Source of the DNA: Halorhodospira halophila SL1 | GTDB taxonomy: Bacteria > Pseudomonadota > Gammaproteobacteria > Nitrococcales > Halorhodospiraceae | Direction of reading: 5' to 3' | Length of the DNA stretch: 32,000 nt | NCBI RefSeq assembly: GCF_000015585.1 | Contig: NC_008789.1 | Coordinates: 1,620,001 to 1,652,000, forward strand | Shown here: positions 5,095 to 32,000 of the stretch, one piece after another | Layout of the letters: each line of letters begins with the position of its first letter | How positions within the stretch are numbered: the stretch's first letter is position 1 | The notes under the pieces: model-generated | What the model saw: only the letters and a program-made list of their open reading frames with translations | What the model was told of the DNA's origin: nothing | Databases searched by the model: none | Program-made: the position numbers and the translations under genes

Positions 5095-5103
5095 CCGGTC
5101 CCG

Positions 5104-8478: not shown

Positions 8479-8949
8479 ATGCCCGCATCCATCGCCAACA
8501 TCCTGTCCGATCAGGAGTTCTTCTCAGGGTTGGAGCGTGCCCACGTCGAGTTCCTGGCCGAATGCGCGGCTGCGCGCTCCTTGGAGCAGGACGAGGTCCT
8601 GTTCCGCAACGGCGACGCCGCGGACGCCTTCTACCTGATCCGCTCCGGCGGCGTCGTCCTCGAGGTCCCCGCCATCAGCGGGCCCACGCTGGAGGTTCAG
8701 CGCCTGGGGGCGGATCAGATCATCGGTTGGTCCTGGTTGATTCCTCCGTACCGCTGGAACTTCAACGCCCGCGCCGAGGACACCACCGAATTGCTGGTGT
8801 TTGACGGCGCGGCGGTTATCGCCCGCTGTGAGGCGGATCCGGCTTTTGGATACCAGATCCTGAAACGCTTTTCGGCGCTGATGTCGGAACGATTAGATGT
8901 GGCAAGACAGCGCATGATGGACCAGTGGAACCCTCCGGGGTTCGCTTGA
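8479..8949 (+). CDS. stand-alone cyclic-nucleotide-binding (cNMP/CAP-effector) domain protein, no HTH
   Basis: 156 aa, with AGGAG located 9 nt upstream of the ATG. 'FFSGLERAHVEFLAECAAARSLEQDEVLFRNGDAADAFYLIRSGGVVLEV' and 'GADQIIGWSWL' match the cNMP-binding beta-barrel. The protein ends soon after the C-helix, without a DNA-binding domain. Confidence 0.7.
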   Translation: MPASIANILSDQEFFSGLERAHVEFLAECAAARSLEQDEVLFRNGDAADAFYLIRSGGVVLEVPAISGPTLEVQRLGADQIIGWSWLIPPYRWNFNARAEDTTELLVFDGAAVIARCEADPAFGYQILKRFSALMSERLDVARQRMMDQWNPPGFA

Positions 8950-9120
8950 CACATTGTTTTCGGAGCAACCCATGGGCCGCGCGAATTCATGGTTACCCAC
9001 GGGGAACAACTGAGGGCGGCCCAGACTAGCGGTTTGCGGAGGTTATCGCTCCTCGGTACTGTGACGACGGGCCGGGGGTATGATTCGCCCTGATGGGGCT
9101 TTTCCATGGAGGTGTCCAGA

Positions 9121-9765: not shown

Positions 9766-9800
9766 CGGTCTTCCCGCGACCCACAAGCTAAGCCAACGAC

Positions 9801-9848
9801 CCCGACTTGCCGGCCCCACCCCGAGCGGCTGGCAAGTCGGGTTTTTTG
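9801..9848 (+). terminator. rho-independent terminator downstream of the 9121-9765 gene
   Basis: A 15-bp GC-rich inverted repeat, cccgacttgccggcc (9801-9815) and ggctggcaagtcggg (9827-9841), with one mismatch. A TTTTTT run at 9842-9847 follows it directly. Confidence 0.8.
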
Positions 9849-9988
9849 TCCCCTGCCACTTCCCCCGCTCGAACCTCCACTACACTTGACTGGTGACGGT
9901 CCAGTATCGCAGCCACTGGCCAGCGTTTAGGTCGATATTCAGATCCGGTGGGATTTTTTCGAAAGGCGCGAGCCGCGGAGGTTGGCAA

Positions 9989-15781: not shown

Positions 15782-17091
15782 GGCTCAAGCGCCTCGCTTT
15801 CCACCCAGCGATACTTCCCGGACGCACTCGGCGGTATCACGGAAACCCGCTCGAAACGCACCGGCACCTCCATCCCGAGGGTCCGACGCAGGCCCTCTGC
15901 CACCTGACGCGCCTCGGCCTCCCCCCAATCGGCATCGGCAACCACCTGGATATCCAGGCTCCGGTCCGTTCGCTGCACAAGCCGGTATTGCACCACCTGC
16001 GGCACTTCCCGGAGCACATAGTTCGCCGCTGAGCCGTGGATCCGACGTCCCTCCGCCCCCACGAGGAAATCATTGCGACGCCCCTCTAACCGGTCGAGCA
16101 CCGGCAGCGGCGAGCCGCAGGGACAGGCTCCAGCGCTGACCCGGCCTCGATCCCCGACGCGGTAGCGGATCAGGGGCATGCCGAAACCGTCCAGGTTGGT
16201 GATCAGCAGATCGCCCACCCCGGAGGCGTCCGGCGCGTCCACCTCCACCCATACGTGCTCGGCGGCGATGTGCAGTCGCCCCTCACGACACTCATGGGCG
16301 GTCAGCCCGGCATCCCTAGACCCGTACTCATTGGCCACCGGCGGCGCTCCCAAGCCCGCTGTAATCGCCTCGCGCAGCTGCGGATAGAGCATCTCGGAGG
16401 TGCAGACGACCAAATCGGGTCGCCACCCCCCTAGCAGTCGCGGGTGATCCGCCGCATGGCGTGCCACCCGGGCGATGACCGTCGGGTAGCCGTAAACAAG
16501 GTGGGGGCGGAACCGGCCGAGGAAGCGCAAATAAGCCTCCAACCGATCCGGGCTCAGATCGTGCGCCGAACACAGCGCCTGGTTGAGCAGATACTGATCC
16601 TTGAACCGGCGAAACCGCGACGACTTGTTCAACTCGACGGGGGATCCCCAGAAATCCACTTGCCGATCCCCTGGGCGCACCCCGAACCAAGTGCGAAAAC
16701 GCAGCTTATGGGCGTTATGCCGGGTCTCCTTGACCGGATCGGTCCAGAACGTGAGCGGACGCCCCGAAGATCCGCCGGTGGACGAGGGCAGGAGCCTGCC
16801 CGGGTAGTGATCGCTACACAGCGCATCGCCGTGCTCGCGCACGGTATCCCGCTCGAGCACTGGGAAATCGGTGACCTCCAGGGCCCCGTTAGCGGGCAGC
16901 CGCGCCCGATAGAACGGCACCCGATCCCGACAGTGCTCCAGGAGGGCCGCCAGCTTCTCGCGACGCAGCCGGTACACCGCGTCGGGGTGCTGCTCGCCCC
17001 GACGCAGGGCCGCCAGTTCGGCGAGGGTTGCCCGGCCACGCAGCCGCTCATGGGCGGGCAACAGGAGCCCACGGACCAGCCAGGGGGTCAC
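15778..17091 (-). CDS. phenylacetate-CoA-ligase/CapK-like adenylate-forming enzyme
   Basis: The P-loop-like motif 'SSTGGSSGRPLTFW', plus 'EMLYPQLREAI', 'ANEYGSRDAG', 'GMPLIRYRVGDRG' and the C-terminal 'SASGKYRWV' fit the PaaK/F390-synthetase/CapK family. The start is placed at the GTG at 17091, which forms a GTGA overlap with the AsnB stop. The track start at 17145 would overlap asnB by 58 nt. Confidence 0.7.
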   Translation of the reverse strand: MTPWLVRGLLLPAHERLRGRATLAELAALRRGEQHPDAVYRLRREKLAALLEHCRDRVPFYRARLPANGALEVTDFPVLERDTVREHGDALCSDHYPGRLLPSSTGGSSGRPLTFWTDPVKETRHNAHKLRFRTWFGVRPGDRQVDFWGSPVELNKSSRFRRFKDQYLLNQALCSAHDLSPDRLEAYLRFLGRFRPHLVYGYPTVIARVARHAADHPRLLGGWRPDLVVCTSEMLYPQLREAITAGLGAPPVANEYGSRDAGLTAHECREGRLHIAAEHVWVEVDAPDASGVGDLLITNLDGFGMPLIRYRVGDRGRVSAGACPCGSPLPVLDRLEGRRNDFLVGAEGRRIHGSAANYVLREVPQVVQYRLVQRTDRSLDIQVVADADWGEAEARQVAEGLRRTLGMEVPVRFERVSVIPPSASGKYRWVESEALEP

Positions 17092-19001
17092 CGCGCCCCC
17101 TCCACACAGCGGCGCAGGAAGGACTCCAGCATCAGCAGGGCCCACAGCGGACGGGCGTGATTGCTTCGCCCGGACTGGTGTTCATCGACCAGGGTGCGCA
17201 ACCGGCTCGCATCGAAGTAACCGCTGTCCATCAGCCGTTTGCCGAGCACGGCTTCGCGGAGCCGCTGGCGCAGCGGTCCGCGAAACCACTCCGCGATGGG
17301 CATATTGAACCCCTGCTTGGTGCGGTAGAGGACATCGTGGGGCAGGCGATCCTCGAAGGCCCGCTTGAGGAGCCACTTGCCCTGCTGATTGCGGACCTTG
17401 AGATCCGTAGGCAACCGCCCCGCCCACTCCATGAACCGGTGATCGAGCAGCGGCACCCGCACCTCCAGCCCGTGGGCCATGCTTGCCCGATCCACCTTGG
17501 TCAGGATGTCGCCCGGCAACCAGGTTTTGAGATCCAGGTACTGCACAAAGGCGAGCGGGTCGTGGGTCGGTGCCTCGGCGGCGTGGCCACGCAGCACCTC
17601 GGCGGCGTGGTACCCCTGCAGTTCGCGCTGAAACCGCTGCGAGAACAGCCGGGCGCGCTGATCGTCATCGACCACCGCGACGCTGCGCAGATACCCGGCC
17701 ACCGGATCCGCCGCCAGCGCCTGGAAAGTCGCCTTGCCACGCAGGTACTTAGGTGCCCAGTCGGCCTTCGGGTACCAGCGGGCCAGCGACCCGAACAGAC
17801 CTCGTCGAAGGCCATCCGGTAGCCGCCCCCGCAGCCGGGCCTCCCGCTGATAACCGCGGTAGCGTCGGTACCCCGCCAGCACCTCATCGCCCCCGTCCCC
17901 GGATAGCGCCACCGTAACGTGCTGCCGCGCGATCCGGCTGACCTCGTAGGTAGGAAGAGCCGACGGGTCGGCGAAGGGCTCGTCGAAGAGCAGCGCCAAC
18001 TCGTCGATCAGGTCGAAACGCTCCGAATCCACCTTGTGGATGTGGTGGTTGAGGCCCAGGTGCCCGGCCACCTTCCCGGCGTGCTCCGCCTCGTCGTAAT
18101 GCGGATCGCGGAAGGCAATGGAGCACGCATCCACCGGACGGTCACTGAGTTCGCTCATCAACGCCACCACGACACTGGAGTCGACCCCGCCGGAGAGGAA
18201 AGCGCCCAGAGGGACCTCGGCCTCAAGACGGATGTCCACCGCCTCGCGTAGCTGCGCGACCAACGCCTCGCCGGCCTGCTCCGCCGACAACGAGCGATCT
18301 GAGCTGCTATCGAACGTAGCGTCCCAATACTGTCGCGGGGGCCCCATCGGTTCACCGCGGCGTAGCAATAACGTATGCCCCGGCGGCAGCTTGCGTACGG
18401 CCGCAAAGATGCTCCGCGGATCCGGCACATAACCGTAGGCGAAGTAATCCTCGATCGCCCTCGGATCGAGGTCTCTCGGCACCTCGGCGCAGGCCAGCAG
18501 GGCCTTGATCTCGGACGCGAACAGCACCCGTCCGTCGGGGAGTTCGGCGTAGCACAGGGGCTTGATCCCGAGCCGATCGCGGGCCAGGAATAACGCCTGC
18601 TCATTGCGATCCCAGACCGCCAGGCTGAACATCCCGCGGAAGTGCTCGACGCAACGCTCGCCCCACTCCTCCCAGGCGTGCACAATGACCTCGGTATCAC
18701 AGCGCGTGGCGAAGTCGTGCCCGCGCTGCTCCAGTGTCGACCGCAGCTCGGCATGGTTGTAGATCTCGCCGTTGAAGACGGTGATCACCCGGCCATCTTC
18801 ATTGGCAAGCGGCTGCTGCCCCCCCGCGCGATCGATGATTGACAAGCGACGGTGGCCGAGCCCGACCCCGGCCTCCTGATGGATACTCGAATCGTCCGGT
18901 CCCCGGTGGGCCAGGCTCTCGGTCATGCGCCGCAAAAGCGCCTCGTCGCCGGCGCGCCCGCCTTCCAGGGCGTGATCCAGGATTCCGACTAACCCGCACA
19001 C
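17088..19001 (-). CDS. glutamine-hydrolysing asparagine synthase family amidotransferase (XrtA/PEP-CTERM-system-associated type)
   Basis: 637 aa. It begins (f)Met-Cys 'MCGLVGILD', the class-II glutaminase nucleophile. Further signatures are 'HRGPDD', 'RLSIID', and the PP-loop 'GAFLSGGVDSSVVVALM'. Its position right after the stp2 glycosyltransferase and XrtA matches the conserved locus order. Confidence 0.85.
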   Translation of the reverse strand: MCGLVGILDHALEGGRAGDEALLRRMTESLAHRGPDDSSIHQEAGVGLGHRRLSIIDRAGGQQPLANEDGRVITVFNGEIYNHAELRSTLEQRGHDFATRCDTEVIVHAWEEWGERCVEHFRGMFSLAVWDRNEQALFLARDRLGIKPLCYAELPDGRVLFASEIKALLACAEVPRDLDPRAIEDYFAYGYVPDPRSIFAAVRKLPPGHTLLLRRGEPMGPPRQYWDATFDSSSDRSLSAEQAGEALVAQLREAVDIRLEAEVPLGAFLSGGVDSSVVVALMSELSDRPVDACSIAFRDPHYDEAEHAGKVAGHLGLNHHIHKVDSERFDLIDELALLFDEPFADPSALPTYEVSRIARQHVTVALSGDGGDEVLAGYRRYRGYQREARLRGRLPDGLRRGLFGSLARWYPKADWAPKYLRGKATFQALAADPVAGYLRSVAVVDDDQRARLFSQRFQRELQGYHAAEVLRGHAAEAPTHDPLAFVQYLDLKTWLPGDILTKVDRASMAHGLEVRVPLLDHRFMEWAGRLPTDLKVRNQQGKWLLKRAFEDRLPHDVLYRTKQGFNMPIAEWFRGPLRQRLREAVLGKRLMDSGYFDASRLRTLVDEHQSGRSNHARPLWALLMLESFLRRCVEGAR

Positions 19002-19007
19002 TGGCAG

Positions 19008-20207
19008 TTATCCCTTCCTTGCCACGGAGCCGCTCCGCGCCGGTGGCGCCAATAGCTCGCGATAAAGACTTTCGTAAGCCCCGACCATGGCCTCGACCGA
19101 GAAATGCTCCACCGCTCGCCGGCGCCCTGCAGCCCCTTCCAACGACCGACGGTGCGGCTCCTGAAGGTAGCCGGCCAGCCCATCACACAGCTGCTCGGGA
19201 TCACCCGCAGGCACCAGCGTCCCGGTCACCCCCTCCTCAACCAGCTCCGGCAACCCGCCGACCCGCGATGCCACCACCGGAAGGCCACTGGCCATGGCCT
19301 CAAGGACCGTCACCGGGATCCCTTCGGCGAGGGAGGGCAACGCAAAGACATCGAACGCCGCCAACCGGGTCGCGACATCGGTGCAGTTGCCCGTGAGTTC
19401 CACGGCATCGGCCACATCCAACTCCGCCGCCAACGCCCGAAGCGACTGCTCTTCAGGACCACTGCCAATCACTACCAATCGCAGATCCCCGCGCTTGGCC
19501 GAGAACCGCTCGCGAAGACGGGCGAAAGCCCGGATAAGCGTCGCCTGGTCCTTCACCGCCGTCAGCCGCCCGACGGTGCCAATCACCAGGACGCCCCCTT
19601 GCCCCGAATCCTCCTCCGATGATCGCCTCGCGGCCCGATAACGCTTTGTATCGACGCCGTTGTAGATGTGGCGCACCCGGCGCTTGGGGATCCGCACCCG
19701 CTCGGTGAGATACTCGGCCAAGTGGCGGGAGACCGTCACGTGCCGTTGCACCCAGGGACTGAGGGCCCGCCGCAGCCAGCGGTACCGCCAGCGGGTCCCG
19801 TCGAGATCGGCCATGTCCCAACCGTGCTCCGCGTGGACGCGGCCCGGCACGCCGCTCAGCGCGGCCACCGGCTGGCACTCCAAAGCGGCCAGGTTCGACG
19901 TATGCACCACATCCGGCCGCAGCTGACACAACAACCGATAAAGACGCCACTGGGTACCCAACCCCCACCCGGGGGGCTTGTGGAGGGCATGGACGGGCAC
20001 TCCATCCGGTAGCCGGCGACGGAACGCTTCATCGTAATCCGCCAGACAGACGACGACATGCCGGAAACCATGGTGGACGCTGCCGCGGACCAGCTCGACG
20101 AGGATGTTCTCCAGCCCCCCGACATCCAGACGATAGAGGATATGGGCAATCAGCGGGCGCGAGCCCTGCCCATCCCGGGGGCGCCGGCGATCATGGTCGA
20201 TCGTCAA
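19008..20207 (-). CDS. glycosyltransferase, PEP-CTERM/EpsH1-system-associated 'stp2' type (GT4)
   Basis: 399 aa. 'RPLIAHILYRLDVGGLENILVELV' at the N-terminus and 'VFALPSLAEGIPVTVLEAMASGLPVVASRVGGLPELV' (EX7E) are present. The TTG start makes a TTGA overlap with the XrtA stop. It lies immediately downstream of xrtA, as in other XrtA loci. Confidence 0.8.
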   Translation of the reverse strand: MTIDHDRRRPRDGQGSRPLIAHILYRLDVGGLENILVELVRGSVHHGFRHVVVCLADYDEAFRRRLPDGVPVHALHKPPGWGLGTQWRLYRLLCQLRPDVVHTSNLAALECQPVAALSGVPGRVHAEHGWDMADLDGTRWRYRWLRRALSPWVQRHVTVSRHLAEYLTERVRIPKRRVRHIYNGVDTKRYRAARRSSEEDSGQGGVLVIGTVGRLTAVKDQATLIRAFARLRERFSAKRGDLRLVVIGSGPEEQSLRALAAELDVADAVELTGNCTDVATRLAAFDVFALPSLAEGIPVTVLEAMASGLPVVASRVGGLPELVEEGVTGTLVPAGDPEQLCDGLAGYLQEPHRRSLEGAAGRRRAVEHFSVEAMVGAYESLYRELLAPPARSGSVARKG

Positions 20208-21784
20208 CGTCCCCGAACCTCCTCCAGGGTCCCCAACAACTCGGGCAGCGCAGCCTCCGCAAAACGACGCAGGGCCGGCTCAACCTCCTCTGGATCATCG
20301 GGATAAAGCGCATAGAGCACCACCAGCGCTGCATCGTCGCGCCCCCCGAGCAAGCGGGACAGCGACTCCCGCGCCTTCACTTCGTGGGGGCTGGTGGTCA
20401 GCCGGTCCGTCACCCAGTACCAACGCCAGGCCAGGATCTGTCGATTCGGCCCGGTGAGCTCGAATCGTGCCGGGCGGGTCCAATCATCGATCTCCGCCCG
20501 CCCGGCCGAGCGTTGCCGCCAGGCGTCCCGATCCCGGCCGGCCATGGTATTATCCCAAGTGATCATATTCCCGTGCCGGAATTGCTCCCGGTAGTAGCCC
20601 ACGTAGACCCCCACCGGAACCCCTTGCCCATCGACATAGTGCCGGTGGAAGGCCGCGCGCGCGTTGCGATACCCCGGCTCCCAGGGATCGGCCTCGATCG
20701 CCTCCCAGTCATTGAGGGGCAGCTCCGCCTCCTCCAACCCGGCAACAGGGCCGAGATCCCGCTGATTCATCCATCCGGCGTAGAGCGGCCCGGAAGCGAC
20801 CAGTACTCCCCCCGTCAACGCCACCCCGGCAACCGCAGCAACCGAACGCGATCCAAGCCCTGTACTGTCGCTAAGCCGCTCCGCCATGCCACCGCCGCCT
20901 GGACCGGGCGCTGCCCCCTCGGAGATCGGCCGATCCTCGCGCCAGTAGGTCCCGATCCAGAACATCAGCGCGATCACCGCACCGAAGAACACCCAGCCAT
21001 AGATCAGATGATCGACCCCCGCGGCCAACTCCATGCCACTGAGATGTCCGATCATCACGATCGCATAGGCGCGCAGACCGTTGGCGAGGATCGGCACCAG
21101 GAACGAGAAGGCCACGAAAACCAGCCGGCGCATCCAGCTTCGGTAAACCAGGTAGGCGTACAGCGTGCCCAGGGCGACGGTAGCGATGAGGTAACGCACG
21201 CCACTGCACGCCTCGACCACGGACCAGCGGCCGGTCGGCAACTCGAAGTTCAGTCCTTCGCGATAGACCGGCACGCCGGTTTGCTGCACTGCCCATACCG
21301 TGAAGTCGGCAGTCCAGTCCATCAGCGGCGGGACCAGGAACTCACCGAATGGGACGGCAGAGATCAGGTAGGCCAGCGGGAAGAGCAGCGTCCAGGCGAC
21401 GGCGTTGCCCAGGCTCAGCCAGACGACAGCCGGGATCAGGAGCACCGCCGCGAAGTGGCGCACGGAGTCGACGTCCACCAACGCGCCGAGCACCCAGAGC
21501 AGGACCAGTCCGGCGACCGGCACCAGGGCCAGTGGTTGCACTCTGGGCTGTTGATCCGCCAGGGGGTGACGCAGCCGATAAACCAGGAAGAGGACGATGG
21601 GCACGATCAGGAAACCGTGGGCGAAGGTCTCTGAGCGTGACCAAATACCCACAATAGCCTGATAGGTTGGCAGGAAGGCGATCGCCAGCACCACGCCGAG
21701 CAGTGCCAATGCCGCCCCGTGCAGGTACCACGGCGCTCGATCCCCGAGCCCACCGCCGACAATCGCATCCGGGTTACTGGCCAT
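20204..21784 (-). CDS. xrtA: exosortase A (XrtA) fused to a C-terminal EpsI-family domain
   Basis: The N-terminal polytopic membrane domain carries 'WSRSETFAHGFLIVP' and the catalytic-Cys motif 'EACSGVRYLIATVALG', followed by 'ANGLRAYAIVMIGH'. After one further TM helix, about 200 aa ('YVGYYREQFRHGNMITWDN', 'WRWYWVTDRLTTSPHEVKA') look like EpsI. The ATG at 21784 has GAGG 6 nt upstream; the GTG at 21796 is an alternative start. Confidence 0.85.
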   Translation of the reverse strand: MASNPDAIVGGGLGDRAPWYLHGAALALLGVVLAIAFLPTYQAIVGIWSRSETFAHGFLIVPIVLFLVYRLRHPLADQQPRVQPLALVPVAGLVLLWVLGALVDVDSVRHFAAVLLIPAVVWLSLGNAVAWTLLFPLAYLISAVPFGEFLVPPLMDWTADFTVWAVQQTGVPVYREGLNFELPTGRWSVVEACSGVRYLIATVALGTLYAYLVYRSWMRRLVFVAFSFLVPILANGLRAYAIVMIGHLSGMELAAGVDHLIYGWVFFGAVIALMFWIGTYWREDRPISEGAAPGPGGGGMAERLSDSTGLGSRSVAAVAGVALTGGVLVASGPLYAGWMNQRDLGPVAGLEEAELPLNDWEAIEADPWEPGYRNARAAFHRHYVDGQGVPVGVYVGYYREQFRHGNMITWDNTMAGRDRDAWRQRSAGRAEIDDWTRPARFELTGPNRQILAWRWYWVTDRLTTSPHEVKARESLSRLLGGRDDAALVVLYALYPDDPEEVEPALRRFAEAALPELLGTLEEVRGR

Positions 21785-23027
21785 CAGCTGCCTCACTCAA
21801 CGCGTGTCCCTCATCGTCATCAATCCGTTCGGTCGTGCCAGCGAGCAGCCGGTCGAGCCGGCCAAGATGCCGGGCCCAACTGTAGTCCTGCACGACGCGC
21901 CTTCGCGCAGCTGCCCCCATACCATCGCCCCCGTCCAGGCACCGGCAGACCGCTTCGACCATTGCTTCCGGCTGCGCCTCGGCGCTTTCCACTTCCACCC
22001 CTAGGGCGACCTGCAGTCCTTCCAGGGCCTCCGGCGAAGCGACGATCGGCCGGCCGAGGGCCATCGCCTCGAGTACCTTGTTCTGGATCCCTCGGGCCAC
22101 ACGCAGCGGCGCCACGGCCACGGCTGCGTGACCAACCCAGGGGCGGACGTCGTCCACAAAGCCGGTGACGGTCACCCCGGGGCGGTTTGCCAGCGCAGCC
22201 ACTGCCGGCGTCGGCCGATTACCGACCACGTAGAACCGAGCCGCTGGCTCCCGGGCCCGGACCTGGGGAAAGGCCTCCTCAGCGAACCAGCAGGCCGCAT
22301 CGGCGTTCGGCCAATAATCCATGGCGCCCGTCAGGACCACCGGCCGCTCGTCGGCGGCGTAAGGGCTCGGCCCAAGAAGCCTCGGGTCGAAGTAGTCCGT
22401 ATCCACGCCGTTACTCATTGCCGAGACGCTTTGCGCCGACTCCGGCGCGAGACTCCGGAACGCCGCCGCCTCGTCCGTAGAAACAAACAAGCTGGCGTCG
22501 CTCGACGCCGCCAGGTGTCGTTCGTAGGCCAATAGCCGGCGTGCCTCGCGGGCAAAGACCGCCCGCAGGGGCCAGGGACGATGGCGCGCGTACTGACCCC
22601 ACTTATCGGAGTCGATGTCGACGAAATCCACCACCCGCAGTAGCGAAGGTGGCCGATCCGGCACGTACGGCCCCATCGACGAGGAGAAGCACATCGCGAC
22701 ATCGATTGGCTGCGCTTGGCACACCTGGCGAACCCACTGCGCCAGGTGCCGGTCCCGGTACCAGGGCAGGGTCAGCGGCTCTCCAGTGAGAAAACCGCCA
22801 AGCGCGCGCAGCTGCGCCCGCCGCCGCGGCAGTGGACGCGCGCACACGCTCGCGCAAACCGCTTCCAGGTCGGGGAGGAAACGCCAATCGTCCGGGTCAT
22901 CGACAAAGGTCCCGAGGTGGACCCGGTGGCGCTCCGTCAAGTGACGGAGGATATGGTAAGAGCGGATCTTATCGCCCTTGTTCGGCGGCCACGGCACGCG
23001 ATGCACCAGGAACAGGATCTCGGCCAC
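21774..23027 (-). CDS. glycosyltransferase, PEP-CTERM/EpsH1-system-associated 'stp1' type
   Basis: 417 aa. The N-terminus 'MAEILFLVHRVPWPPNKGDKIRSYHILRHL' is the highly characteristic start of this family. It sits directly upstream of xrtA and overlaps it by 11 nt. Confidence 0.85.
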   Translation of the reverse strand: MAEILFLVHRVPWPPNKGDKIRSYHILRHLTERHRVHLGTFVDDPDDWRFLPDLEAVCASVCARPLPRRRAQLRALGGFLTGEPLTLPWYRDRHLAQWVRQVCQAQPIDVAMCFSSSMGPYVPDRPPSLLRVVDFVDIDSDKWGQYARHRPWPLRAVFAREARRLLAYERHLAASSDASLFVSTDEAAAFRSLAPESAQSVSAMSNGVDTDYFDPRLLGPSPYAADERPVVLTGAMDYWPNADAACWFAEEAFPQVRAREPAARFYVVGNRPTPAVAALANRPGVTVTGFVDDVRPWVGHAAVAVAPLRVARGIQNKVLEAMALGRPIVASPEALEGLQVALGVEVESAEAQPEAMVEAVCRCLDGGDGMGAAARRRVVQDYSWARHLGRLDRLLAGTTERIDDDEGHALSEAADGQ

Positions 23028-23035
23028 GCTCCCTC

Positions 23036-24067
23036 CTACCCCAGACCCCGGACCACGATGGGTCCCAATCGATTCACCACCGAAAGCGGCAACCGCTGCC
23101 AGATGCGGATTGCTTGCCGGTACCGCGGATTGAGCGGATTGTGCTCGGGGATCGTGCTGCGCTTGTAGAGCTGGTATTCGTAGGCCAGCGGCTGCGGCTC
23201 GAACCCCCAGTTGCGCTTGAAGTGGTAGGCACCGGTCCCCTTCTTGCTCCGCCCGAAATCAAACAGCCGGTACCCCTCCTCACACCCCCGGCGCATCAAC
23301 TCCCAGTAGAGGAAATCGTAGCCCGCCACCTCGCGCGCCGCAGGCAATCCGCCGCCGTAATAGGGCAGAATCTCATCCCGGAAATAGAACGTCAGGACAC
23401 TCGTAACCGGCTTCCCGTCGTGGGACACCATCAGTACGCGGCAGTCGTCACCGAAGGTCTCCGCCAGTAGGTGGAAGTAACAGCGTGGAAAGACCGGCGT
23501 ACCCAGACGGTGGACACTTCGCGCATAGAGGTCGTGAAAGCGGTCGAGATCGGCCTCCCAGGTCGCTTCCAAACCGGCCTTGATCCCCTGGCGCACCATT
23601 CGCCGCTGCTTGCGCGGGATGGCTTGGAAGTTCGCGTCCTCGTCAGCCGCCAGGGATTTCCGGAAGGTGGCGTACAACGCATCCTGGCGCGGCCACTCCG
23701 TATGCACCGGCGCGCGGTGGCGATACTCCAGAAACTCTACACCCAGCGCCCGGGCACGCTCCTGAGCCGCATGGTCGAGCGCCTTCCGCGCCGATTCATC
23801 GGCAGCGACCACCCCGCCATAGACGCAGAAGGGGGTGGAAATCAGGGCATCGCTGAACAACCAGCTCTTGCTGCGTGCCAGCGGAAGCACCCCCACGATC
23901 ACCCCGTCACGCTCGGCGTAGAGATACTCCGTTACGTGACCGAACGCCTCGCGCAGGACCCGCGCCCAGCCGCTGCGGTGGAAAAAGGTGGCCTCCGGCG
24001 ACTGCTGAACGAAAGCGTCCCAGCGGGCCTCGTCCGCCGCTTCCAGTCTCGCTACGCGTAGATCCAT
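23036..24067 (-). CDS. FemAB-family (GNAT-fold peptidyl/aminoacyl-transferase-like) protein, PEP-CTERM-system-associated
   Basis: 'WDAFVQQSPEATFFHRSGWARVL', a duplicated acyltransferase-like fold, and the C-terminal 'FDFGRSKKGTGAYHFKRNWGFEPQPLAYEY' match this family. The ATG at 24067 is preferred; the track's TTG at 24103 is an alternative. Confidence 0.8.
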   Translation of the reverse strand: MDLRVARLEAADEARWDAFVQQSPEATFFHRSGWARVLREAFGHVTEYLYAERDGVIVGVLPLARSKSWLFSDALISTPFCVYGGVVAADESARKALDHAAQERARALGVEFLEYRHRAPVHTEWPRQDALYATFRKSLAADEDANFQAIPRKQRRMVRQGIKAGLEATWEADLDRFHDLYARSVHRLGTPVFPRCYFHLLAETFGDDCRVLMVSHDGKPVTSVLTFYFRDEILPYYGGGLPAAREVAGYDFLYWELMRRGCEEGYRLFDFGRSKKGTGAYHFKRNWGFEPQPLAYEYQLYKRSTIPEHNPLNPRYRQAIRIWQRLPLSVVNRLGPIVVRGLG

Positions 24068-24115
24068 TCCTGTACCGCTTCTCCCTGTCTGCTGGCGCTC
24101 CAAAGCGGCTAACTT

Positions 24116-25021
24116 TCAGAATGCCTGGGCTGAAACCGCCTGCCCGGCCTGCCAGTCGCTGACACCGGCCAACTCCGGCGCAAAGACGCGATCGATCCGA
24201 TCCCAGTCCAGATCCTGGAGCAACCGACTGAGCCGCTGCTCCGTGCGATGCAGGTTCACGTAGTGACGAACGCGGGTGCGGAGATCGATGCCCGGGACCC
24301 GCGGCTGCTCGGGATCGAGCTCCCAGGGGTGAATATAGAACACCGCCGGCTGCCCCTCCGCTTGGGCGATCCAGCGCAGAGCTGCCCACGAGACCCGGTA
24401 GGGCAGAAGTCGAAAATAGCCGCCGCCACCCGCCGGAAGATTCCGACCAAGGAGCCGAAGCGTCGCCGGGGGCAACTCTAGGAGGCCGCCTTGCCCATCC
24501 GGACGATGGGCGTGTCGTGGTGCCTCAGGGGTGCCGTAGTGGTCATGCCGGACCGGGTAGACGCTTGAGCTGTAGCGGTGACCGGTCTCCTGCAGGATCT
24601 CTCGCGCCCAGGGCGTTCGCGGCCCGATGGAAAAGGCCGGCGCCCGATAACCGACCACCGGCACCCCGCCGGTGTCTTCCAACAGCCCCTTAGCCCGGAT
24701 CAAATCCTCGCGGAATGCGCGCGGCCCGATCTCCCAGACGCGCTCATGCCCGTATCCGTGGCTCGCCAACTCGTGACCGGCAGCCACGATGCGGCGGACA
24801 ACCTGCGGATAGCGCTTCGCCACCCAGCCGAGGGTAAAGAACGTGCCGCAAACACAGCGGTCGGCACAGATCTGCAGAAGCCGATCCATGCTTGCCTCGA
24901 TGCGACAAGGCCAGCGCTCCCATGCGTCCCGCCCCACATACGGCGCCATGGCCAGGACTTGAAAGTAATCCTCGACATCCACTGTCAGCGCATTGCACCG
25001 CGCCCAGCTGCGCTCCTCCAT
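24116..25021 (-). CDS. polysaccharide deacetylase (CE4), PEP-CTERM-locus subfamily
   Basis: 301 aa. 'NALTVDVEDYFQV' is the NodB-type Asp motif. 'GHELASHGYGHE' is the His-His metal motif. 'GGGYFRLLPY' is also present. Confidence 0.85.
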   Translation of the reverse strand: MEERSWARCNALTVDVEDYFQVLAMAPYVGRDAWERWPCRIEASMDRLLQICADRCVCGTFFTLGWVAKRYPQVVRRIVAAGHELASHGYGHERVWEIGPRAFREDLIRAKGLLEDTGGVPVVGYRAPAFSIGPRTPWAREILQETGHRYSSSVYPVRHDHYGTPEAPRHAHRPDGQGGLLELPPATLRLLGRNLPAGGGGYFRLLPYRVSWAALRWIAQAEGQPAVFYIHPWELDPEQPRVPGIDLRTRVRHYVNLHRTEQRLSRLLQDLDWDRIDRVFAPELAGVSDWQAGQAVSAQAF

Positions 25022-25071
25022 GGCCCATCCCCCTTTGGGGCCTTTCCGCCCCCGTCATCCCCACGCGGCAG

Positions 25072-26187
25072 TCACGGTTCCCCGCGGTTTACCTCCAGTG
25101 CCCGCTTGAGCGAGCCACTCACCTGACGCGTCAGGCGGTAGCCGGAAATCAGATAACGCTCAACCCGCTCCAAGCGCTGATTCAGCCGTTCCTGGTCTTC
25201 ACGCTGAACATTGACCAGCTGCTGTACCCGCTTATAGGTGAAACCGAGGTAACGCTCGATCCGCTGCAGCCGCTGCTCTAGAGTTTGTCGGTCGGTACCG
25301 AGCCCCTCCCGGGCGTTTTCCGGATCCTGCTCCGAAGGAGAACTCGGGGCTGCATCCCCGTTATCCGCCTCGCCCAGATCGGCCTCCACCTCGTCGATAA
25401 CCGACTGCACCTCACGGACAGTAAACTCGTGGCACTCCTCCAAGTACCCCATCAGAAGCAACCGGTCGCAGAGCGTATTGATCCGCCTCGGGGTTCCCTG
25501 AGTGTAGTCGTAGATCCGCTGCCACGCCCCCTCTGAGAAGCTCGGATCCGCCTCCCAACCCACCTGGGCGAGCCGGTGCTCGATGTAGGCCCGGGTATCT
25601 TCAGCATCCATCGGGCCGAGGTGATAGGTGGCGATCACCCGCTGACGCAACTGCTGCATATGCTCACTGCGCAGGAGTCGCCGAAACTCCGGCTGACCCA
25701 ACAGAAAGCTCTGCAGCAGTGGGCCACCCTCGTCGCCCTGAAAGTTCGAGAGCATGCGCAACTCCTCGACGGCTTCATCGTTGAGGTTCTGCGCCTCGTC
25801 CACTACGAGCAGCGCACGCTGGCCACGGGATCGAATCCGAACAAGAAATCGCTCCAACTCCCGCAACTGATCGGCCTTGTTCTGCGGTGGGTTCTCGATC
25901 CCGAAGGCGAGACAGACCAGCCGCAGCAGGTTATCCGCGCTCAGTCGGGTGCTGACCAGGTGGGCCGCGAGCAGCGGGCGATCAACGATGCCGCTGAGTA
26001 GACTCCGCGCCATGGTCGTCTTACCGGCACCGACCTCTCCGGTGATGACGATAAAGCCCTCGCCCTGCTGCACCCCATACTCCAGGTAGGCCATCGCCCG
26101 GCGGTGGCCTTTGCTGGCGTAGAAGAAACGTGGATCGGGGCTCAGCGCGAATGGCTTGTCGCGCAGGCCGTAGAAGTCTTCATACAT
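25072..26187 (-). CDS. ExeA/GspA-like AAA ATPase, XrtA/PEP-CTERM-locus subfamily, with repeat-containing C-terminal extension
   Basis: 'MYEDFYGLRDKPFALSPDPRFFY', Walker A 'GEVGAGKTT' and Walker B 'ALLVVDEAQNL' are present. The last ~100 aa form an acidic linker plus two copies of an 'L.QRL.R(I/V)ERYL...Y(K/R)' segment. Confidence 0.85.
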   Translation of the reverse strand: MYEDFYGLRDKPFALSPDPRFFYASKGHRRAMAYLEYGVQQGEGFIVITGEVGAGKTTMARSLLSGIVDRPLLAAHLVSTRLSADNLLRLVCLAFGIENPPQNKADQLRELERFLVRIRSRGQRALLVVDEAQNLNDEAVEELRMLSNFQGDEGGPLLQSFLLGQPEFRRLLRSEHMQQLRQRVIATYHLGPMDAEDTRAYIEHRLAQVGWEADPSFSEGAWQRIYDYTQGTPRRINTLCDRLLLMGYLEECHEFTVREVQSVIDEVEADLGEADNGDAAPSSPSEQDPENAREGLGTDRQTLEQRLQRIERYLGFTYKRVQQLVNVQREDQERLNQRLERVERYLISGYRLTRQVSGSLKRALEVNRGEP

Positions 26188-26194
26188 AGGCGGC

Positions 26195-27685
26195 TTAGAA
26201 TTCCATGGTCAGGCGGGCACTGATGCGGTTCTCGCGACGGCGCTCGTCCAAAGCGAGGTCCTCACGCCCCTCGACGCGCTGCCGGTGGATCAGATCCAAA
26301 TCGCCCGAGGTCCGCCGCCCCAGGCTGCGCGAAAGACCCAAGGAAAGACGGTACTCCTCGCTCTCGCGCTCCTGATCGTCGACATCTCGCCCCTCGATCC
26401 AGCGGTAGACCCCCCGCAGCGTGGCATCCGTCCGCGCTCCGAAGGACCAGCCCCACCGCCCAACGACGCGGCGCTCGCGCTCCACCGCGTCCTCGAACCG
26501 GTCGTCACCAATCCCAAACTCCTCGTCGCTGTCCCTCTGGATGAACTCCAACCGGAAGCTGTGGGGGCCGGTGGTATAGTCCCAGCTGCCACGCCAGGTC
26601 TCGGCAAAGGTGATTCGGTCCTCATCGACGAGCAAGTCATCCGCGTCGAGAAAGCCGAACTCGGCCAGAAGCCGATCAAACTCGGTTGCCTCGGGATCAA
26701 GGGCGCGTCCCAAGCCGTCCGTCCGCCCCTCGGCGTAGGAGAGCCGCCAGGTGGAGCGCGGCGCCTGGTGGACCAAGCCCAACGATCGCTGATCTCGGCG
26801 ATTCGTCTGATCCGTGTCGTCGATCTGGTCCTTGAACTGGCCGTAACTCCCAGATATCTGCGTATTCCGGGTGATGTCCCAGTCGGCGTTGACCCGCCAG
26901 CTCTGGGTGTCGCGGCGCCGATCCTCGACCCGAATCCAGCCATCCGATCCGGATAGGCTCAGGCGCAACGACCGGCCGAACCGGTACCCCAAGGTGGCCT
27001 GGTTGGAGAAACGATCAATCTCGGCGCGCTCCGGATCGTCGAAGCGATCCCAGTTGCGTTCGGAGCGGAACTGCCAGAAGGTGCGACCGAACTGCGGGCC
27101 GCTATCCAGCTGGTATTGGGCGCGATGCACCTGTTGCGGCTGGCGATCCGATCGGTGGTAACGGGCCTCGTCGAAGACGTAACGCACCTCTTGCTCCGAG
27201 AAGCGACCCTGCCGCCACACCCAGTAAGGGCTGATGCGGTAGCGGGTCGTCTCCTGCTGATCCCGCGCGGTTACCGGATCGAAGATCGATTCCGCCCGCA
27301 CACTGCGGCGGATGGAGCCCTCCACGAAGATCGACTCCCGCACCAACTCGGCGTTGCCACTTCCGCGCAGATTGTGGGTACTTCGGTCCCGGTCGCTATC
27401 GCGCCAGTAAAGCCGGTTGTCCCACGAGTAATTGAGGTCGAGTTCGGCACGCGCGCCCTCTCCACTCAGGGTCAAGCTCGGCCGCAAGAGCGTAACCAGG
27501 TCACTCTCCTCTGCACCCCGCGGGGAAAAATCGGCGTTGTCGGTCCACTCCTGACCAACGGTCATGCGCGGGGTGAAGGTCCACTGTGTCGAAGCGATAC
27601 TGGCCCCGGAAATCAGCAGAAGCCCCAAGGCGGCCGCGGCGCCCGGCAGCGCCCGCGCCCTAGCTACCCTCGGCGACACGGCCAT
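26195..27685 (-). CDS. outer-membrane beta-barrel protein of the PEP-CTERM-locus family (uncharacterised)
   Basis: The ATG at 27685 has AAGGAAG 5 nt upstream and a signal peptide 'MAVSPRVARARALPGAAAALGLLLISGASIAS'. Alternating beta-strand-like sequence rich in R/D/W/Y runs throughout, and the protein ends in an OMP-style terminal Phe ('RLTMEF'). The 32-codon upstream extension in the track is the BY-kinase Tyr-cluster repeat read in another frame. Confidence 0.8.
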   Translation of the reverse strand: MAVSPRVARARALPGAAAALGLLLISGASIASTQWTFTPRMTVGQEWTDNADFSPRGAEESDLVTLLRPSLTLSGEGARAELDLNYSWDNRLYWRDSDRDRSTHNLRGSGNAELVRESIFVEGSIRRSVRAESIFDPVTARDQQETTRYRISPYWVWRQGRFSEQEVRYVFDEARYHRSDRQPQQVHRAQYQLDSGPQFGRTFWQFRSERNWDRFDDPERAEIDRFSNQATLGYRFGRSLRLSLSGSDGWIRVEDRRRDTQSWRVNADWDITRNTQISGSYGQFKDQIDDTDQTNRRDQRSLGLVHQAPRSTWRLSYAEGRTDGLGRALDPEATEFDRLLAEFGFLDADDLLVDEDRITFAETWRGSWDYTTGPHSFRLEFIQRDSDEEFGIGDDRFEDAVERERRVVGRWGWSFGARTDATLRGVYRWIEGRDVDDQERESEEYRLSLGLSRSLGRRTSGDLDLIHRQRVEGREDLALDERRRENRISARLTMEF

Positions 27686-28658
27686 CCGCTTCCTTGGCGG
27701 CGCTGCTCCGGGGCTCCCCACCGTATTTACCGTAACCGTAACCGTAGCCGTAGCCGTAACCGCTGTATCCCAGCCCTCCATGACCGGTCGCTTTGTTGAG
27801 CATGGTCAGCACCACGTCGCACCCCTCCAGCAGCTCCGCGGCCCGCATCACCGCCGTTTGCGCCGTACCCTCAGCCTCGATCACGAGGAGCACCTGCCCC
27901 ATCTCCCGGGCCAGCACACTCGGTTCACTGGTCGAGAGCAGCGGGGGGGAATCGAAGAGGATCACCCGATCCGGGTAGCGCTCGTGGATCTCCTCCAGCA
28001 GATCGGTCATACCCTGACTGGCCAGTAACTCCGTCGAACGACCGTGGGGACGTCCGGCTGGCAACACACTGAGATCAGGGATATCGGTGCGCAGGAGCAC
28101 GTCCGGCAGACGAAGATCAGAGTCGGTCAACAGGTCCATGAGCCCCCTGTCGGCCGCGAATCCAAGTGTTCGCGGGACGCTCGGACGTGCCACGTCGGCA
28201 TCGACGACCAGAACCGTGCGATCCACCTCCATGGCGATGCTCAGCGCGAGGTTGATCGTGGAGAAGGTCTTACCCTCCCCGGGGACGGCACTGGTCACCA
28301 TGATCAACCGCCCTTTATCCACTACCGGCATGCCATGGCGCCCGAAGGCGTTATCGAGCAGCGGGCGCTTCATCAAGCGGAACTCCTCTTCAAGCCCGCT
28401 GCGCGCCTCTCCTGGAACCTGGATCCCCTGATGGCGCAACCACCCGTAATCAATCCGGACGTCGGCCGGTCGTTCGACGGTGCGCGGCGCGCGTCCGAAC
28501 TGCGGCGTGGAGGGCCTGGCCTGCGCATATTCCGTCTGGGTCGTCTCGCCCGCCGGATCGGCCTCCTGTTGTCCGGCCCCCTGGACCGAACCTTGCGCTT
28601 GTGCACCGGGTGCCTGGTTGCCTCGGCGCTTCTCCAGCGCCCGCTCGATAATGCTCAT
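27660..28658 (-). CDS. epsG: chain-length-determinant BY-type protein tyrosine kinase (EpsG type)
   Basis: Walker A 'SAVPGEGKTFSTINLA', Walker A' 'VLVVDADV' and Walker B 'VILFDSPP' are present. The C-terminal tyrosine cluster is 'GYSGYGYGYGYGYGKYGG'. The gene sits 15 nt downstream of epsF. Confidence 0.85.
   Translation of the reverse strand: MSIIERALEKRRGNQAPGAQAQGSVQGAGQQEADPAGETTQTEYAQARPSTPQFGRAPRTVERPADVRIDYGWLRHQGIQVPGEARSGLEEEFRLMKRPLLDNAFGRHGMPVVDKGRLIMVTSAVPGEGKTFSTINLALSIAMEVDRTVLVVDADVARPSVPRTLGFAADRGLMDLLTDSDLRLPDVLLRTDIPDLSVLPAGRPHGRSTELLASQGMTDLLEEIHERYPDRVILFDSPPLLSTSEPSVLAREMGQVLLVIEAEGTAQTAVMRAAELLEGCDVVLTMLNKATGHGGLGYSGYGYGYGYGYGKYGGEPRSSAAKEADGRVAEGS
27723..27766 (-). repeat. 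imperfect hexanucleotide (GGY-TAC)n tract encoding the BY-kinase C-terminal Tyr cluster
   Basis: The plus strand reads gtaacc gtaacc gtagcc gtagcc gtaacc (27732-27761), flanked by two more Tyr codons. That gives seven Tyr within 15 residues. Confidence 0.9.
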
Positions 28659-28673: not shown

Positions 28674-30218
28674 CTAGGCAAAAAAGACCCCAACCACCAC
28701 CCCATAGGCAACCAACAAGGCTCCGGTTGCGCTGAAGAAGACGAGCATCTCCATGCGCCTGCGGCGCCGGTGGGCCGGCGTTCGCACCCGCGAGATCTGC
28801 CCCATGACGGGCCGCCCGGTGAGCTCGCCGAGCTGGCCGGGCGCGGCCACCGTGCCGCGAATCTGGGCCAGCAGGAAGGCGAATCCCGTGCCGGCCCCCA
28901 GCCCCAGGACCAGAACCGCGCTGCCCAGCAGGGGGCGGTTCGGCGCTGCCGCCTCACTTGGCTGCTCCGGTGGCTGCAGGACGCGAAAGTCCACCGAGTC
29001 CGCGCCTGACTCCACTTCGCCGGTCAGCACAGCCTGCTCAAGCCGATCCCGTAACTCAGAGTAGCTGTTCTGCAGGACTTCGTAGTCCCGTGTGAGCCGA
29101 CTGTATTCCGACTCGATCTCCGGCACGTCGTCGGAGACCGCCTCAAGTTCCTGGACCCGCAGGCGCTGCTCCTCAACCCGAGTCTCCAGCGAGGCCACAC
29201 GGCTTTCCGATTCGGCCAACTCCAGCTGCAGCGGATGATCGGGCTGACCTAGACCAACGCGATCTACCGGGGAGGCCATCAGGCTCTCGCTGAACTCCAC
29301 CGCCTGCTCCTCCCGCTCCTCGCGCAGATCCTCAAGGACGCGCTGCGTATGCGCCACGTCCGGATGCTGATCGGTATACTGGCGGCGCAGCTCATCAAGC
29401 TCGGATTCCAGGTTACTGATGCGAGCGTCTAGCTCCGGATTCTCGAACTCCGGAGGCTGCACTAATCCGGGGTGATCGCCATCGCCCTCAAGCTGTGCGA
29501 TGAGGCTCTCATAATGGCTTTGAGCCTGCTCAAACTCCAACTCCGCCTCAGCTAACCGCTCACGCTCGGCCCGCAAGCGGCTATAAAAATCGCCGCCGGC
29601 CAACAGAACCTCCGAGTGCTCACGGCGAAAATCCTCAAGCTGCTCTTCCTTCGCCCGCAGCCGAGTGCCGTAACGGTCGAGCTGATTCTCGATAAAATCG
29701 CGCGAGGCCGTCAGATCCGTCCGCGGGTCACCGAGGCCCCGCTCCATGAAGAGGTCACCGGTCTGACGCACCACGCGATAGGCCACCTCCGGGTCCTCAT
29801 CGGAAAAACTGATCGTATAGATATTGTCCCCAGCCCCACTTTCGTCACCCCCGCGCAGATCGATGTCCTGCAGGCTATCGACGGCGCGGTCGATGTCGTC
29901 GTAGCCGAGGAGAATGTCGAGGTCCGCCTGCCGCGCGATCTCACGCAGGTTATCCCGGCTCAGCAGCGTGCTGGTAATCATGTTCATCCGCTGCTCAGCG
30001 TCCGGTCGCACCGTCATGCCGCCGAGCAGTGGACCGAGCACCGAATCCGTATCGACGTAGACCTCGCTCGACGCCTCGTAGGTGTCGGGGAGGGCGTGGA
30101 TGTACGCCCACCCGGGTATACAGACCAGCCAAGCGATGGGAAGGATCCACCACCGTCGACGCCAGGTCGCTCGCAGTTGGTGCAGCACTTCCTGGACGAC
30201 CTGCTCCATCTGCCCCAT
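28674..30218 (-). CDS. epsF: PEP-CTERM-locus polysaccharide chain-length determinant (EpsF type, PCP partner of EpsG)
   Basis: 514 aa, with the ATG preceded by GGGGAG at 9 nt. It has an N-terminal TM helix after 'LRATWRRRWW', a long periplasmic coiled-coil region, a second TM helix 'LLGSAVLVLGLGAGTGFAFLLA', a short cytoplasmic basic segment 'RVRTPAHRRRRR' and a terminal TM helix. The kinase gene follows immediately. Confidence 0.85.
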   Translation of the reverse strand: MGQMEQVVQEVLHQLRATWRRRWWILPIAWLVCIPGWAYIHALPDTYEASSEVYVDTDSVLGPLLGGMTVRPDAEQRMNMITSTLLSRDNLREIARQADLDILLGYDDIDRAVDSLQDIDLRGGDESGAGDNIYTISFSDEDPEVAYRVVRQTGDLFMERGLGDPRTDLTASRDFIENQLDRYGTRLRAKEEQLEDFRREHSEVLLAGGDFYSRLRAERERLAEAELEFEQAQSHYESLIAQLEGDGDHPGLVQPPEFENPELDARISNLESELDELRRQYTDQHPDVAHTQRVLEDLREEREEQAVEFSESLMASPVDRVGLGQPDHPLQLELAESESRVASLETRVEEQRLRVQELEAVSDDVPEIESEYSRLTRDYEVLQNSYSELRDRLEQAVLTGEVESGADSVDFRVLQPPEQPSEAAAPNRPLLGSAVLVLGLGAGTGFAFLLAQIRGTVAAPGQLGELTGRPVMGQISRVRTPAHRRRRRMEMLVFFSATGALLVAYGVVVGVFFA

Positions 30219-31119: not shown

Positions 31120-31308
31120 AGGAGACCTCGCGAGAACACCGGCCATCGCTCCGAGACTCGTCGCGAGCGCGAGTCCTTTACCCCACCGATAATATCGTTT
31201 TTACCTTAAATGACCCACCACGCTGCCGTGACGATGCTGTAGCATATTCATCGGTCCGATTCACGTTCAACCCCAAACGTCATGAGGATGAGGACAATTG
31301 GAGTTCGC

Positions 31309-32000
31309 GATGTCATCCCCCTACTCCCGCTACAAGGTCATCCTGGCGACCGAAGATCAGGCGCGGTGCGCCCATTTCCAGTTACGATACATGGTTTATT
31401 GCGAAAAGAAGCAATATGAATCTTCAAGCCTTTTCCCGGATGGATATGAACGTGACGACCACGACAGTCACGCGCTCCACCTGCTTCTAAAATACACACC
31501 ACCGGGATCCCAGACGAATCGAAACGTGGGCACGATTCGTCTAATAAAAGGCGGAAACAAACCTCTTCCGATCGAGAACATCTCCGACCTGAACAGCAAT
31601 GAATTCACGAATGAATATAGTGGCGAGCTCTCGCGACTCGCTATCCATGAAGTGCCTTCAGGCCACGACACCCTCCCGCTGTTTATCCTCTGCCGTGCTG
31701 CACAGCACCACGCCAGGGGGTGTGGGATATCACGGCTATACTTCCTCGCTCGACCGGCGCTGGCCCGACATCTAACCCGTAACCATTTACCCTTCGAGCA
31801 GGCTGGTTCGCCTTGCTATCACCGCGGCCGCCGCATACCGTACGCGATGGACGTAAATGGCTTTGCTCGGGGGTTAGCGCGGTGGGAAAAGAAACTCATA
31901 AAACAGAAATTAGCCCCATCAAGTAAAACTGAAACCCTCCACGCCTACCAACATCCTAATAGACTTTCTGACATGGTTCCGAACGGCTGCCTGCAGACGA
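31309..32000 (+). CDS. PEP-CTERM/exosortase-system-associated acyltransferase (GNAT-like, related to LuxI / N-acyl amino acid synthases); 3' end outside the window
   Basis: This ORF is not in the supplied track because it has no stop in the window. I translated it by hand: the ATG at 31309 has GGAG 6 nt upstream, and the frame stays open for 230 codons to nt 32000. 'YKVILATEDQARCAHFQLRYMVYCEKKQYES...DGYERDDHDSHALHLLLKY...NVGTIRLI...PLPIE' and 'GELSRLAIHE' match my recollection of the conserved N-terminal pattern of this family. Confidence 0.65.

Follow-up and report, generated by a model that had tools for sequence, protein, structure and literature searches.

The DNA analysed here, which we call the window, is a stretch of 32,000 nucleotides from Halorhodospira halophila SL1 (contig NC_008789.1, positions 1,620,001 to 1,652,000 of the forward strand). 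It carries an XrtA/PEP-CTERM exopolysaccharide (EPS) operon, a divergently oriented gene for a PilZ-domain protein and, running off its right-hand edge, a gene for an acyltransferase related to the N-acyl amino acid synthases (NAS) and to the LuxI-type synthases of acyl-homoserine lactones (AHLs). This last gene is our subject. It is live, is under purifying selection and encodes an acyltransferase of the LuxI/NAS fold, and past the window edge it is followed by a second NAS gene and a ThiF-like gene in an arrangement that recurs in other genomes.

The open reading frame (ORF) begins with an ATG at 31310-31312 on the plus strand and continues for 230 open codons to base 31999, with a GGAG, read directly from the sequence, 6 nt 5' of the ATG. 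A preliminary description of the window had the ATG, the 230 codons and the GGAG spacing right but put the start one base too early, at 31309, in a frame whose translation is riddled with stops. It was correct that the gene is missing from the list of ORFs since it leaves the window without a stop. Extending the sequence, as had been proposed, recovered the 3' end on Logan contig SRR5961519_27 (L001; L001 position = window position minus 21309), which is identical (100%) over 17.4 kb to contig NRRO01000007.1 of H. halophila assembly GCA_016583685.1. The stop lies at window-equivalent 32030-32032, 32 nt past the window edge, giving a full protein of 240 aa, and because the reading frame is uninterrupted through this stop the gene is intact and not a pseudogene. 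The homology search returned a 240-aa protein (P0001) with 100% identity over the 230 aa, and the protein is on record for H. halophila SL1 as ABM62290.1, WP_011814312.1 and UniProt A1WX78. Its RefSeq name is "GNAT family N-acyltransferase", its UniProt name "PEP-CTERM/exosortase system-associated acyltransferase"; what had been offered as an unlisted ORF is thus a real gene, but one already held in public databases under the very family name proposed for it. RefSeq places the start at an in-frame TTG four codons upstream of the ATG (244 aa). The ATG is the better predicted start, because orthologues begin at a methionine aligned to it and because the GGAG would sit within the TTG-started ORF.

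Orthologues are 62-76% identical, with ratios of nonsynonymous to synonymous substitution (dN/dS) of 0.12-0.22. The composition of the gene is atypical, with a GC content of 53% and 58% GC at third codon positions (GC3) against 63-66% and 73-77% in the flanking genes; the second NAS gene is intermediate (GC 57%, GC3 64%). The low GC content may reflect an old horizontal origin or relaxed codon usage.

Scored as a whole protein against TIGR03694, the model of exosortase-associated acyltransferases, the product reaches 119.3 bits as the 230-aa fragment and 119.0 bits at its full 240 aa, above the curated cutoff of 111.95 (E = 2e-34). It also passes Pfam PF13444 (Acetyltransf_5; 33.5 bits, cutoff 22.4). 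Together with the XrtA and PEP-CTERM genes in the same genome, this bears out the family named in the preliminary description; among the hidden Markov models (HMMs) that it had proposed for checking, the acyltransferase model and Acetyltransf_5 were passed and Autoind_synth gave no match. A precomputed match to the latter (PF00765) exists for many canonical TIGR03694 members and for none of the proteins P0001-P0004. The family motifs R..VYC, E.D..D, R.., E.SRLA and LAR.L are all present. Across a 75-member family alignment E47, D49, R77, E106, S108 and R109 are invariant, and R26 and D52 are kept in at least 90% of members. Comparison of the family profile with LasI by hhalign (96% probability; LasI sequence checked against PDB 1RO5) aligns R26, E47, D49, D52, R77, E106, S108 and R109 with LasI R23, E42, D44, D47, R70, E101, S103 and R104, the catalytic and signature residues of the LuxI family.

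The AlphaFold2 model of the protein (pLDDT 87.4, pTM 0.83) is confident for residues 1-200, and the C-terminal 40 residues are modelled as disordered. A Foldseek search of the PDB with this model found LasI (E 6e-9), TofI (2e-8), BjaI (3e-8) and FeeM (2e-7). The LuxI-type enzymes are the best structural matches (LasI 1RO5, TofI 3P2H, BjaI 5W8x; TM 0.72-0.77 on target), and the focal protein shares with them a compact length after the ELSR strand. The model matches FeeM at Foldseek E values of 2e-7 to 1e-6 and a TM of 0.63-0.69 on target, although the two proteins are only about 16% identical; FeeM was reached by fold alone, with no match in sequence or family-profile searches. Searched with the family profile, the PDB yields LuxI-type AHL synthases at E of about 1e-10, and a single-sequence PDB search with the focal protein gave BjaI only, at an insignificant E of 2.1. 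The protein is accordingly modelled with the three-layer alpha/beta/alpha GNAT-like fold of the AHL synthases and FeeM, and the kinship with AHL and N-acyl amino acid synthases asserted in the preliminary description holds at both profile and fold level.

A profile search of 1.84 billion representatives returned 1365 related clusters, only 8 of them at E <= 1e-30. In a neighbour-joining tree (no bootstrap; indicative only) the compact NAS forms, to which the focal protein belongs, make up one clade, to which the canonical copies from the same genomes do not belong. Members of the clade are the proteins of Halorhodospira spp. and locus L007, the first NAS of Alkalilimnicola ehrlichii, and P0007, P0008, P0010, P0011 and P0013. 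The separation of the compact clade from same-genome canonical copies would make the duplication older than these genera, a dating that is likewise indicative only. The search also met longer proteins, with the NAS-like domain making up just one part or occurring repeatedly, namely P0009 (496 aa; residues 269-461), P0045 (460 aa), P0072 (536 aa) and P0146 (516 aa), which may be fusions.

Beyond the window, and on the same strand, two further genes occupy L001 10780-12493 (window-equivalent 32089-33802). A canonical NAS gene lies 56 nt 3' of the compact one; its 282-aa product scores 179 bits against TIGR03694 and is 31% identical to the compact protein. Only 1 nt separates it from the ThiF-like gene (ABM62292), whose 287-aa product matches NF006077/PRK08223 at 473.8 bits and, over the ThiF domain, scores 74 bits with the family model of Rv1355c (TrzS). 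A convergent trio then follows at L001 12544-17166 on the minus strand, encoding an MMPL/HAE3 transporter of the RND type, a protein of ~494 aa and a DUF1329/TP_0789-like (LolA-like) protein. The ~450-494-aa protein of the trio gave no family match and is probably an outer-membrane protein. Past the trio are a gene for a PEP-CTERM protein (6 kb downstream; L017 16722-17648) and one for a large TPR protein.

The order compact NAS, canonical NAS, ThiF is found in H. halophila, in Halorhodospira sp. 9621 (and in the metagenome-assembled genome LKMJ01000804), in L007, in A. ehrlichii and in L022. The operon of A. ehrlichii (L019) is split by a DDE transposase of an insertion sequence (5894-7213) between the second NAS gene and ThiF, and its ThiF gene overlaps the start of the LolA-like, outer-membrane and MMPL genes (8900-13381). 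On L023 the compact NAS gene is followed directly by the same trio (1307-5830). Both in A. ehrlichii and on L023 the trio has the same operon orientation as the NAS/ThiF genes.

Nine more distant loci, from Methyloprofundus, Thiohalocapsa, Oceanospirillaceae, Opacimonas, Propionivibrio and others, were found via alignment of ThiF (44-60% identity) and hence test the linkage of ThiF to NAS, not that of NAS to ThiF across the family. Five of the nine have a NAS gene within about 3 kb of ThiF, three of these five having two NAS genes, and in five of the nine a nitroreductase-family gene is immediately downstream of ThiF. One locus lies beside an XrtA operon and in one a PEP-CTERM protein gene follows. 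A gene of the nitroreductase/FDO type, for a flavin-dependent oxidase of the nitroreductase superfamily, adjoins homologous ThiF genes in L009, L010, L012-L014, L020 and L022; in L022, where the compact NAS is present, it is two genes from ThiF. Genes for PEP-CTERM proteins, recognised by a C-terminal VPEP, a hydrophobic stretch and RRR, occur near ThiF at L017 16722-17648, L016 10936-11997, L020 10796-11716, L021 9044-10105 and L022 2846-3661.

Upstream of the compact gene, the PilZ-domain protein and the EPS operon that the preliminary description had placed beside it were confirmed with PF07238 and the XrtA-system families (Table 1). The PilZ domain spans residues 112-185 and has both of its motifs intact, RxxxR (RAAPR) at residue 114 and NxSxxG (NISKSG) at residue 140, so that by domain match and motifs the protein qualifies as a predicted receptor of cyclic di-GMP (c-di-GMP); its N-terminal domain is conserved. 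An orthologue has the same position in L007 (72% identity) and in A. ehrlichii L019 (36%, N-terminal domain included), and none was found in the Halorhodospira sp. 9621 loci. A cNMP-binding protein (cyclic nucleotide-binding) takes the place of PilZ in Methyloprofundus-type loci, directly upstream of the NAS pair (L012 4234-4707; L013 2446-2919), so a second-messenger receptor beside NAS genes is a recurrent feature. The window itself also encodes a small cNMP-binding protein, at 8479-8949 (+). The promoter and terminator scan found no sigma-70-like site between PilZ and NAS and no terminator excess, and the scans of the window with Rfam (gathering threshold) and for tRNAs were empty.

Table 1. 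Features of the window around the compact NAS-type gene
Feature	Position	Strand	Evidence
Rest of core XrtA/PEP-CTERM EPS operon	17088..28658	-	All above NCBIfam curated cutoffs
XrtA-system polysaccharide chain-length determinant, heading the divergent XrtA EPS operon	28674..30218	-	TIGR03007, 431.6 bits vs 278.85
PilZ-domain protein, 189 aa, ABM62289.1	30550..31119	+	PF07238, 37.8 bits vs cutoff 22.5
Intergenic region PilZ-NAS, 190 bp, 54% GC, presumed promoter region	31120..31309	+	Position between genes
Shine-Dalgarno-like GGAG	31300..31303	+	Direct reading
Focal NAS-type gene, codons 1-230 of 240 within the window	31310..32000	+	Translation, TIGR03694, PF13444, fold

Downstream of its chain-length determinant, the EPS operon encodes a tyrosine autokinase, a TIGR03016 outer-membrane protein, an XrtA-associated ATPase, a polysaccharide deacetylase, a FemAB-family protein, a TIGR03087 glycosyltransferase, exosortase A-EpsI (20204-21796, minus strand; TIGR03109, 345 bits), a TIGR03088 glycosyltransferase and an XrtA-system amidotransferase. 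Exosortase A and nine further XrtA-system families thus score above cutoff within 11 kb. A second TIGR03007 chain-length determinant is encoded at 9893-11521 (+; 468 bits), the two paralogues lying at opposite ends of the EPS locus. Two long ORFs, at 5104-7032 (+, 642 aa) and, inside the EPS block, at 11518-13263 (-, 581 aa), had no NCBIfam or Pfam match. The left-hand end of the window is a peptidase-rich block (29-5094) with genes for an M20 peptidase, a member of the S15 X-Pro dipeptidyl-peptidase family and a trypsin-like peptidase, within which an ATP-grasp D-Ala-D-Ala-ligase-like gene lies on the minus strand; a cyclopropane fatty acid synthase gene is at 7114-8409.

Papers that summarise the work of Craig et al. 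from 2011 relate that it linked the TIGR03694 family to exosortases and reportedly showed that N-acyl amino acids are made. More generally, several lines of published chemistry bear on this set of genes. The PEP-CTERM-associated NAS family is widespread in Proteobacteria, and its members make long-chain N-acyl amides in E. coli. When a family member was disrupted in Methylomonas sp. LW13, a polysaccharide band disappeared and growth in a gradient system was lost; the disruption was complemented. The combination of an N-acyltransferase, a ThiF-like enzyme and a nitroreductase-family oxidase is an established route to acyl-oxazolones and N-acyl-dehydro-amino acids. OxzA makes N-acyl-tyrosine, which OxzB cyclises and oxidises with ATP; TyzA, TyzB and TyzC follow the same acyl-oxazolone route in Mycobacterium tuberculosis, from a cluster flanked by mmpL9; and TrzA and TrzS make tryptazolones in an obligate order, cyclisation and then desaturation. 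The clusters for stieleriacine, for thalassotalic acid and for kyonggic acid add published biochemistry for the NAS-ThiF(-nitroreductase) combination. All characterised relatives (FeeM, the NasY family, OxzA, TyzA and TrzA) acylate free amino acids. A literature search on Halorhodospira and PEP-CTERM found no paper, and the supplement of the TrzAS paper makes no mention of Halorhodospira or A1WX80. Hence the statement in the preliminary description that the product is unknown holds for the protein itself, whereas for the family and the gene combination it does not. The NAS-NAS-ThiF set speaks for known acyl-oxazolone chemistry more than for the uncharacterised signalling layer that was proposed, and a knockout phenotype has been published for the family.

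The H. halophila locus resembles the Oxz, Tyz and Trz modules in having an N-acyltransferase gene and then a ThiF-like gene in one operon, in the case of tyz also in having an MMPL transporter next door, and through the nitroreductase/FDO partner that homologous ThiF loci of other proteobacteria carry. In contrast to those modules, the Halorhodospira and Alkalilimnicola clusters have no such partner in the loci searched, and Halorhodospira has two NAS paralogues instead of one, set in a PEP-CTERM/XrtA locus with PilZ. The compact gene resembles a typical TIGR03694/NasY-type gene in that its genome has the PEP-CTERM system and its neighbour is an XrtA EPS operon, and differs from one in belonging to a separate clade that travels with the canonical copy and in the disordered 40-aa C-terminal tail of its product.

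By analogy with these systems, we infer a scheme for the acyl donor, the amino-acid acceptor, the ThiF substrate, the export route, the c-di-GMP control and the physiological role. In this scheme, which we think somewhat more probable than all others taken together, the compact protein is an active NAS with a donor or acceptor preference of its own, working beside the canonical NAS in a module linked to ThiF, MMPL and PilZ. It would use the conserved Glu-x-Ser-Arg and Glu-x-Asp-x-x-Asp constellation to acylate an amino acid at its alpha-amino group, with a fatty acyl group taken from acyl carrier protein or coenzyme A. Its gene is the first of a conserved set of compact NAS, canonical NAS and ThiF-like adenylating enzyme, the last of which may adenylate the N-acyl amino acid's carboxylate and so, like TyzB, OxzB and TrzS, yield a 5(4H)-oxazolone, or activate it in another way. 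The adjacent trio of MMPL(HAE3) transporter, ~494-aa putative outer-membrane protein and LolA-like protein probably carries the lipid product to the envelope, and the PilZ protein encoded upstream probably brings the module under the control of c-di-GMP, alongside the divergent XrtA EPS operon, and would tie it to EPS production that depends on XrtA.

Several observations weigh against this scheme. The TIGR03694 cutoff is passed narrowly and in two separate stretches, canonical members scoring 179-229 bits, and no match was found to the Pfam models PF21926 (FeeM) or PF00765, for the latter not even at E <= 1. The protein lacks a segment of ~12 aa after LPIE and a ~25-40-aa 'DFRRRxGE...' loop after 'SRLAIH', the latter carrying an arginine conserved in at least 90% of the family; the borderline, split score results from the absence of these two elements. 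Because the loop, which is typical of TIGR03694 without formally defining it, is deleted in the focal protein and in the whole compact clade, we file the gene as a divergent subgroup of TIGR03694 and not as a canonical member. On the pathway side, tblastn and an HMM of four FDOs found no nitroreductase/FDO homologue in ~43 kb of H. halophila around the module, and none in the loci of A. ehrlichii and Halorhodospira sp. 9621 (window, L001, L017, L004 and L019 searched), and the full published oxazolone pathway is therefore incomplete at the H. halophila locus. Finally, in Duganella and Methylomonas rapida ThiF genes of the PRK08223 type adjoin genes for PEP-CTERM proteins although no NAS lies within 8 kb, so the ThiF substrate may be a different one; this recurrence of PEP-CTERM genes near ThiF even where NAS is absent suggests that the ThiF family itself is tied to the PEP-CTERM system.

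Some of the same features would suit a compact paralogue that is not an independent enzyme but a catalytically altered or regulatory partner of the canonical NAS, either a pseudo-enzyme or a specificity subunit, for example in a heterodimer with altered substrate choice. The compact NAS always occurs with another partner, which is the canonical NAS in Halorhodospira, Alkalilimnicola and L022, and the loss of the loop with its near-invariant arginine, the borderline family score and the low GC and GC3 (about 75% in the neighbours for the latter) also speak for such a role. However, every LuxI/NAS signature residue is kept, active LuxI-type enzymes also do without that loop (as seen in the hhalign gap pattern), the canonical paralogue has a similar dN/dS, and on the 6.5-kb contig L023 the compact NAS is accompanied by the trio but by no canonical NAS. 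We consider this explanation unlikely.

The acceptor could also be something other than a free proteinogenic amino acid, such as an OlsB-like amino-lipid head group, an amino sugar of the EPS or the amine of a peptide or protein, in which case the product would be a structural component of the envelope. The EPS operon next to the gene includes genes for a deacetylase, a FemAB-family protein and an amidotransferase, and the altered loop region is one where acceptor or donor specificity could shift. This too is improbable in our view: the characterised relatives all use free amino acids, and the adjacent ThiF-like enzyme needs a free carboxylate of the kind that an N-acyl amino acid offers. HMM matches in its favour are weak, with 18.6 bits for the OlsB model NF052554 against a cutoff of 350, and the OlsB assignment was rejected on that score.

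Very little speaks for a LuxI-type AHL synthase that makes a quorum-sensing signal, apart from the fold and signature residues shared with LasI, TofI and BjaI. The protein fails PF00765, AHL-synthase NCBIfam matches are absent for it and far below cutoff for its canonical NAS neighbour, and the neighbours scanned include no gene of the LuxR type. The family that fits it best is TIGR03694, for which N-acyl amides are the products of the members tested, and its closest relatives acylate amino acids and not S-adenosylmethionine. The AHL-synthase assignment was rejected on the HMM scores, and we give it scarcely any weight. A chance ORF or decaying pseudogene, conceivable in DNA of 66% GC that yields many long spurious ORFs (130 of at least 80 aa in 32 kb) and for a gene of atypical GC, is effectively refuted by the HMM E value, the intact full-length frame, the confident structure model, the conserved position in several species and the purifying selection seen there.

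One further role can be envisaged for the module, although we regard it as a long shot: it might supply an N-acyl amino acid lipid that serves as anchor or acceptor for XrtA-cleaved PEP-CTERM proteins, rather than a diffusible signal. ThiF would then activate N-acyl amino acids to a reactive saturated azlactone or an acyl-adenylate, the LolA-like, outer-membrane and MMPL proteins would export the activated lipid to the outer membrane, and PilZ would gate the process by c-di-GMP. Such a role is compatible with the data because NAS and PRK08223-type ThiF recur beside PEP-CTERM genes and XrtA operons and because the methanotroph NAS knockout loses its polysaccharide band.

The interpretation given in the preliminary description is supported overall, but its novelty was overstated, because the gene is annotated under the proposed name and because both chemistry and a knockout phenotype are on record for the family. 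Taken by itself the ORF adds nothing new, being an annotated member of a family whose ties to exosortase systems and to N-acyl amino acid synthesis appeared in print in 2011. What is added here is that it heads, as a divergent member, a conserved NAS-NAS-ThiF-(MMPL) module beside PilZ and XrtA, and that it can be connected with the work on acyl-oxazolones. The locus bears on the question of why PEP-CTERM/EPS systems carry lipid-amide synthases, and joins two loosely linked literatures, on exosortase-associated NAS enzymes and on ThiF-dependent acyl-oxazolone biosynthesis. It is a compact genetic test bed, conserved across the family Ectothiorhodospiraceae, that combines a PilZ gene and two different NAS paralogues with a ThiF-like activator lacking its usual oxidase and with a lipid-type exporter, all beside XrtA. 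Should the anchoring role prove true, the module would be the source of the lipid partner that the PEP-CTERM/exosortase system has been missing.

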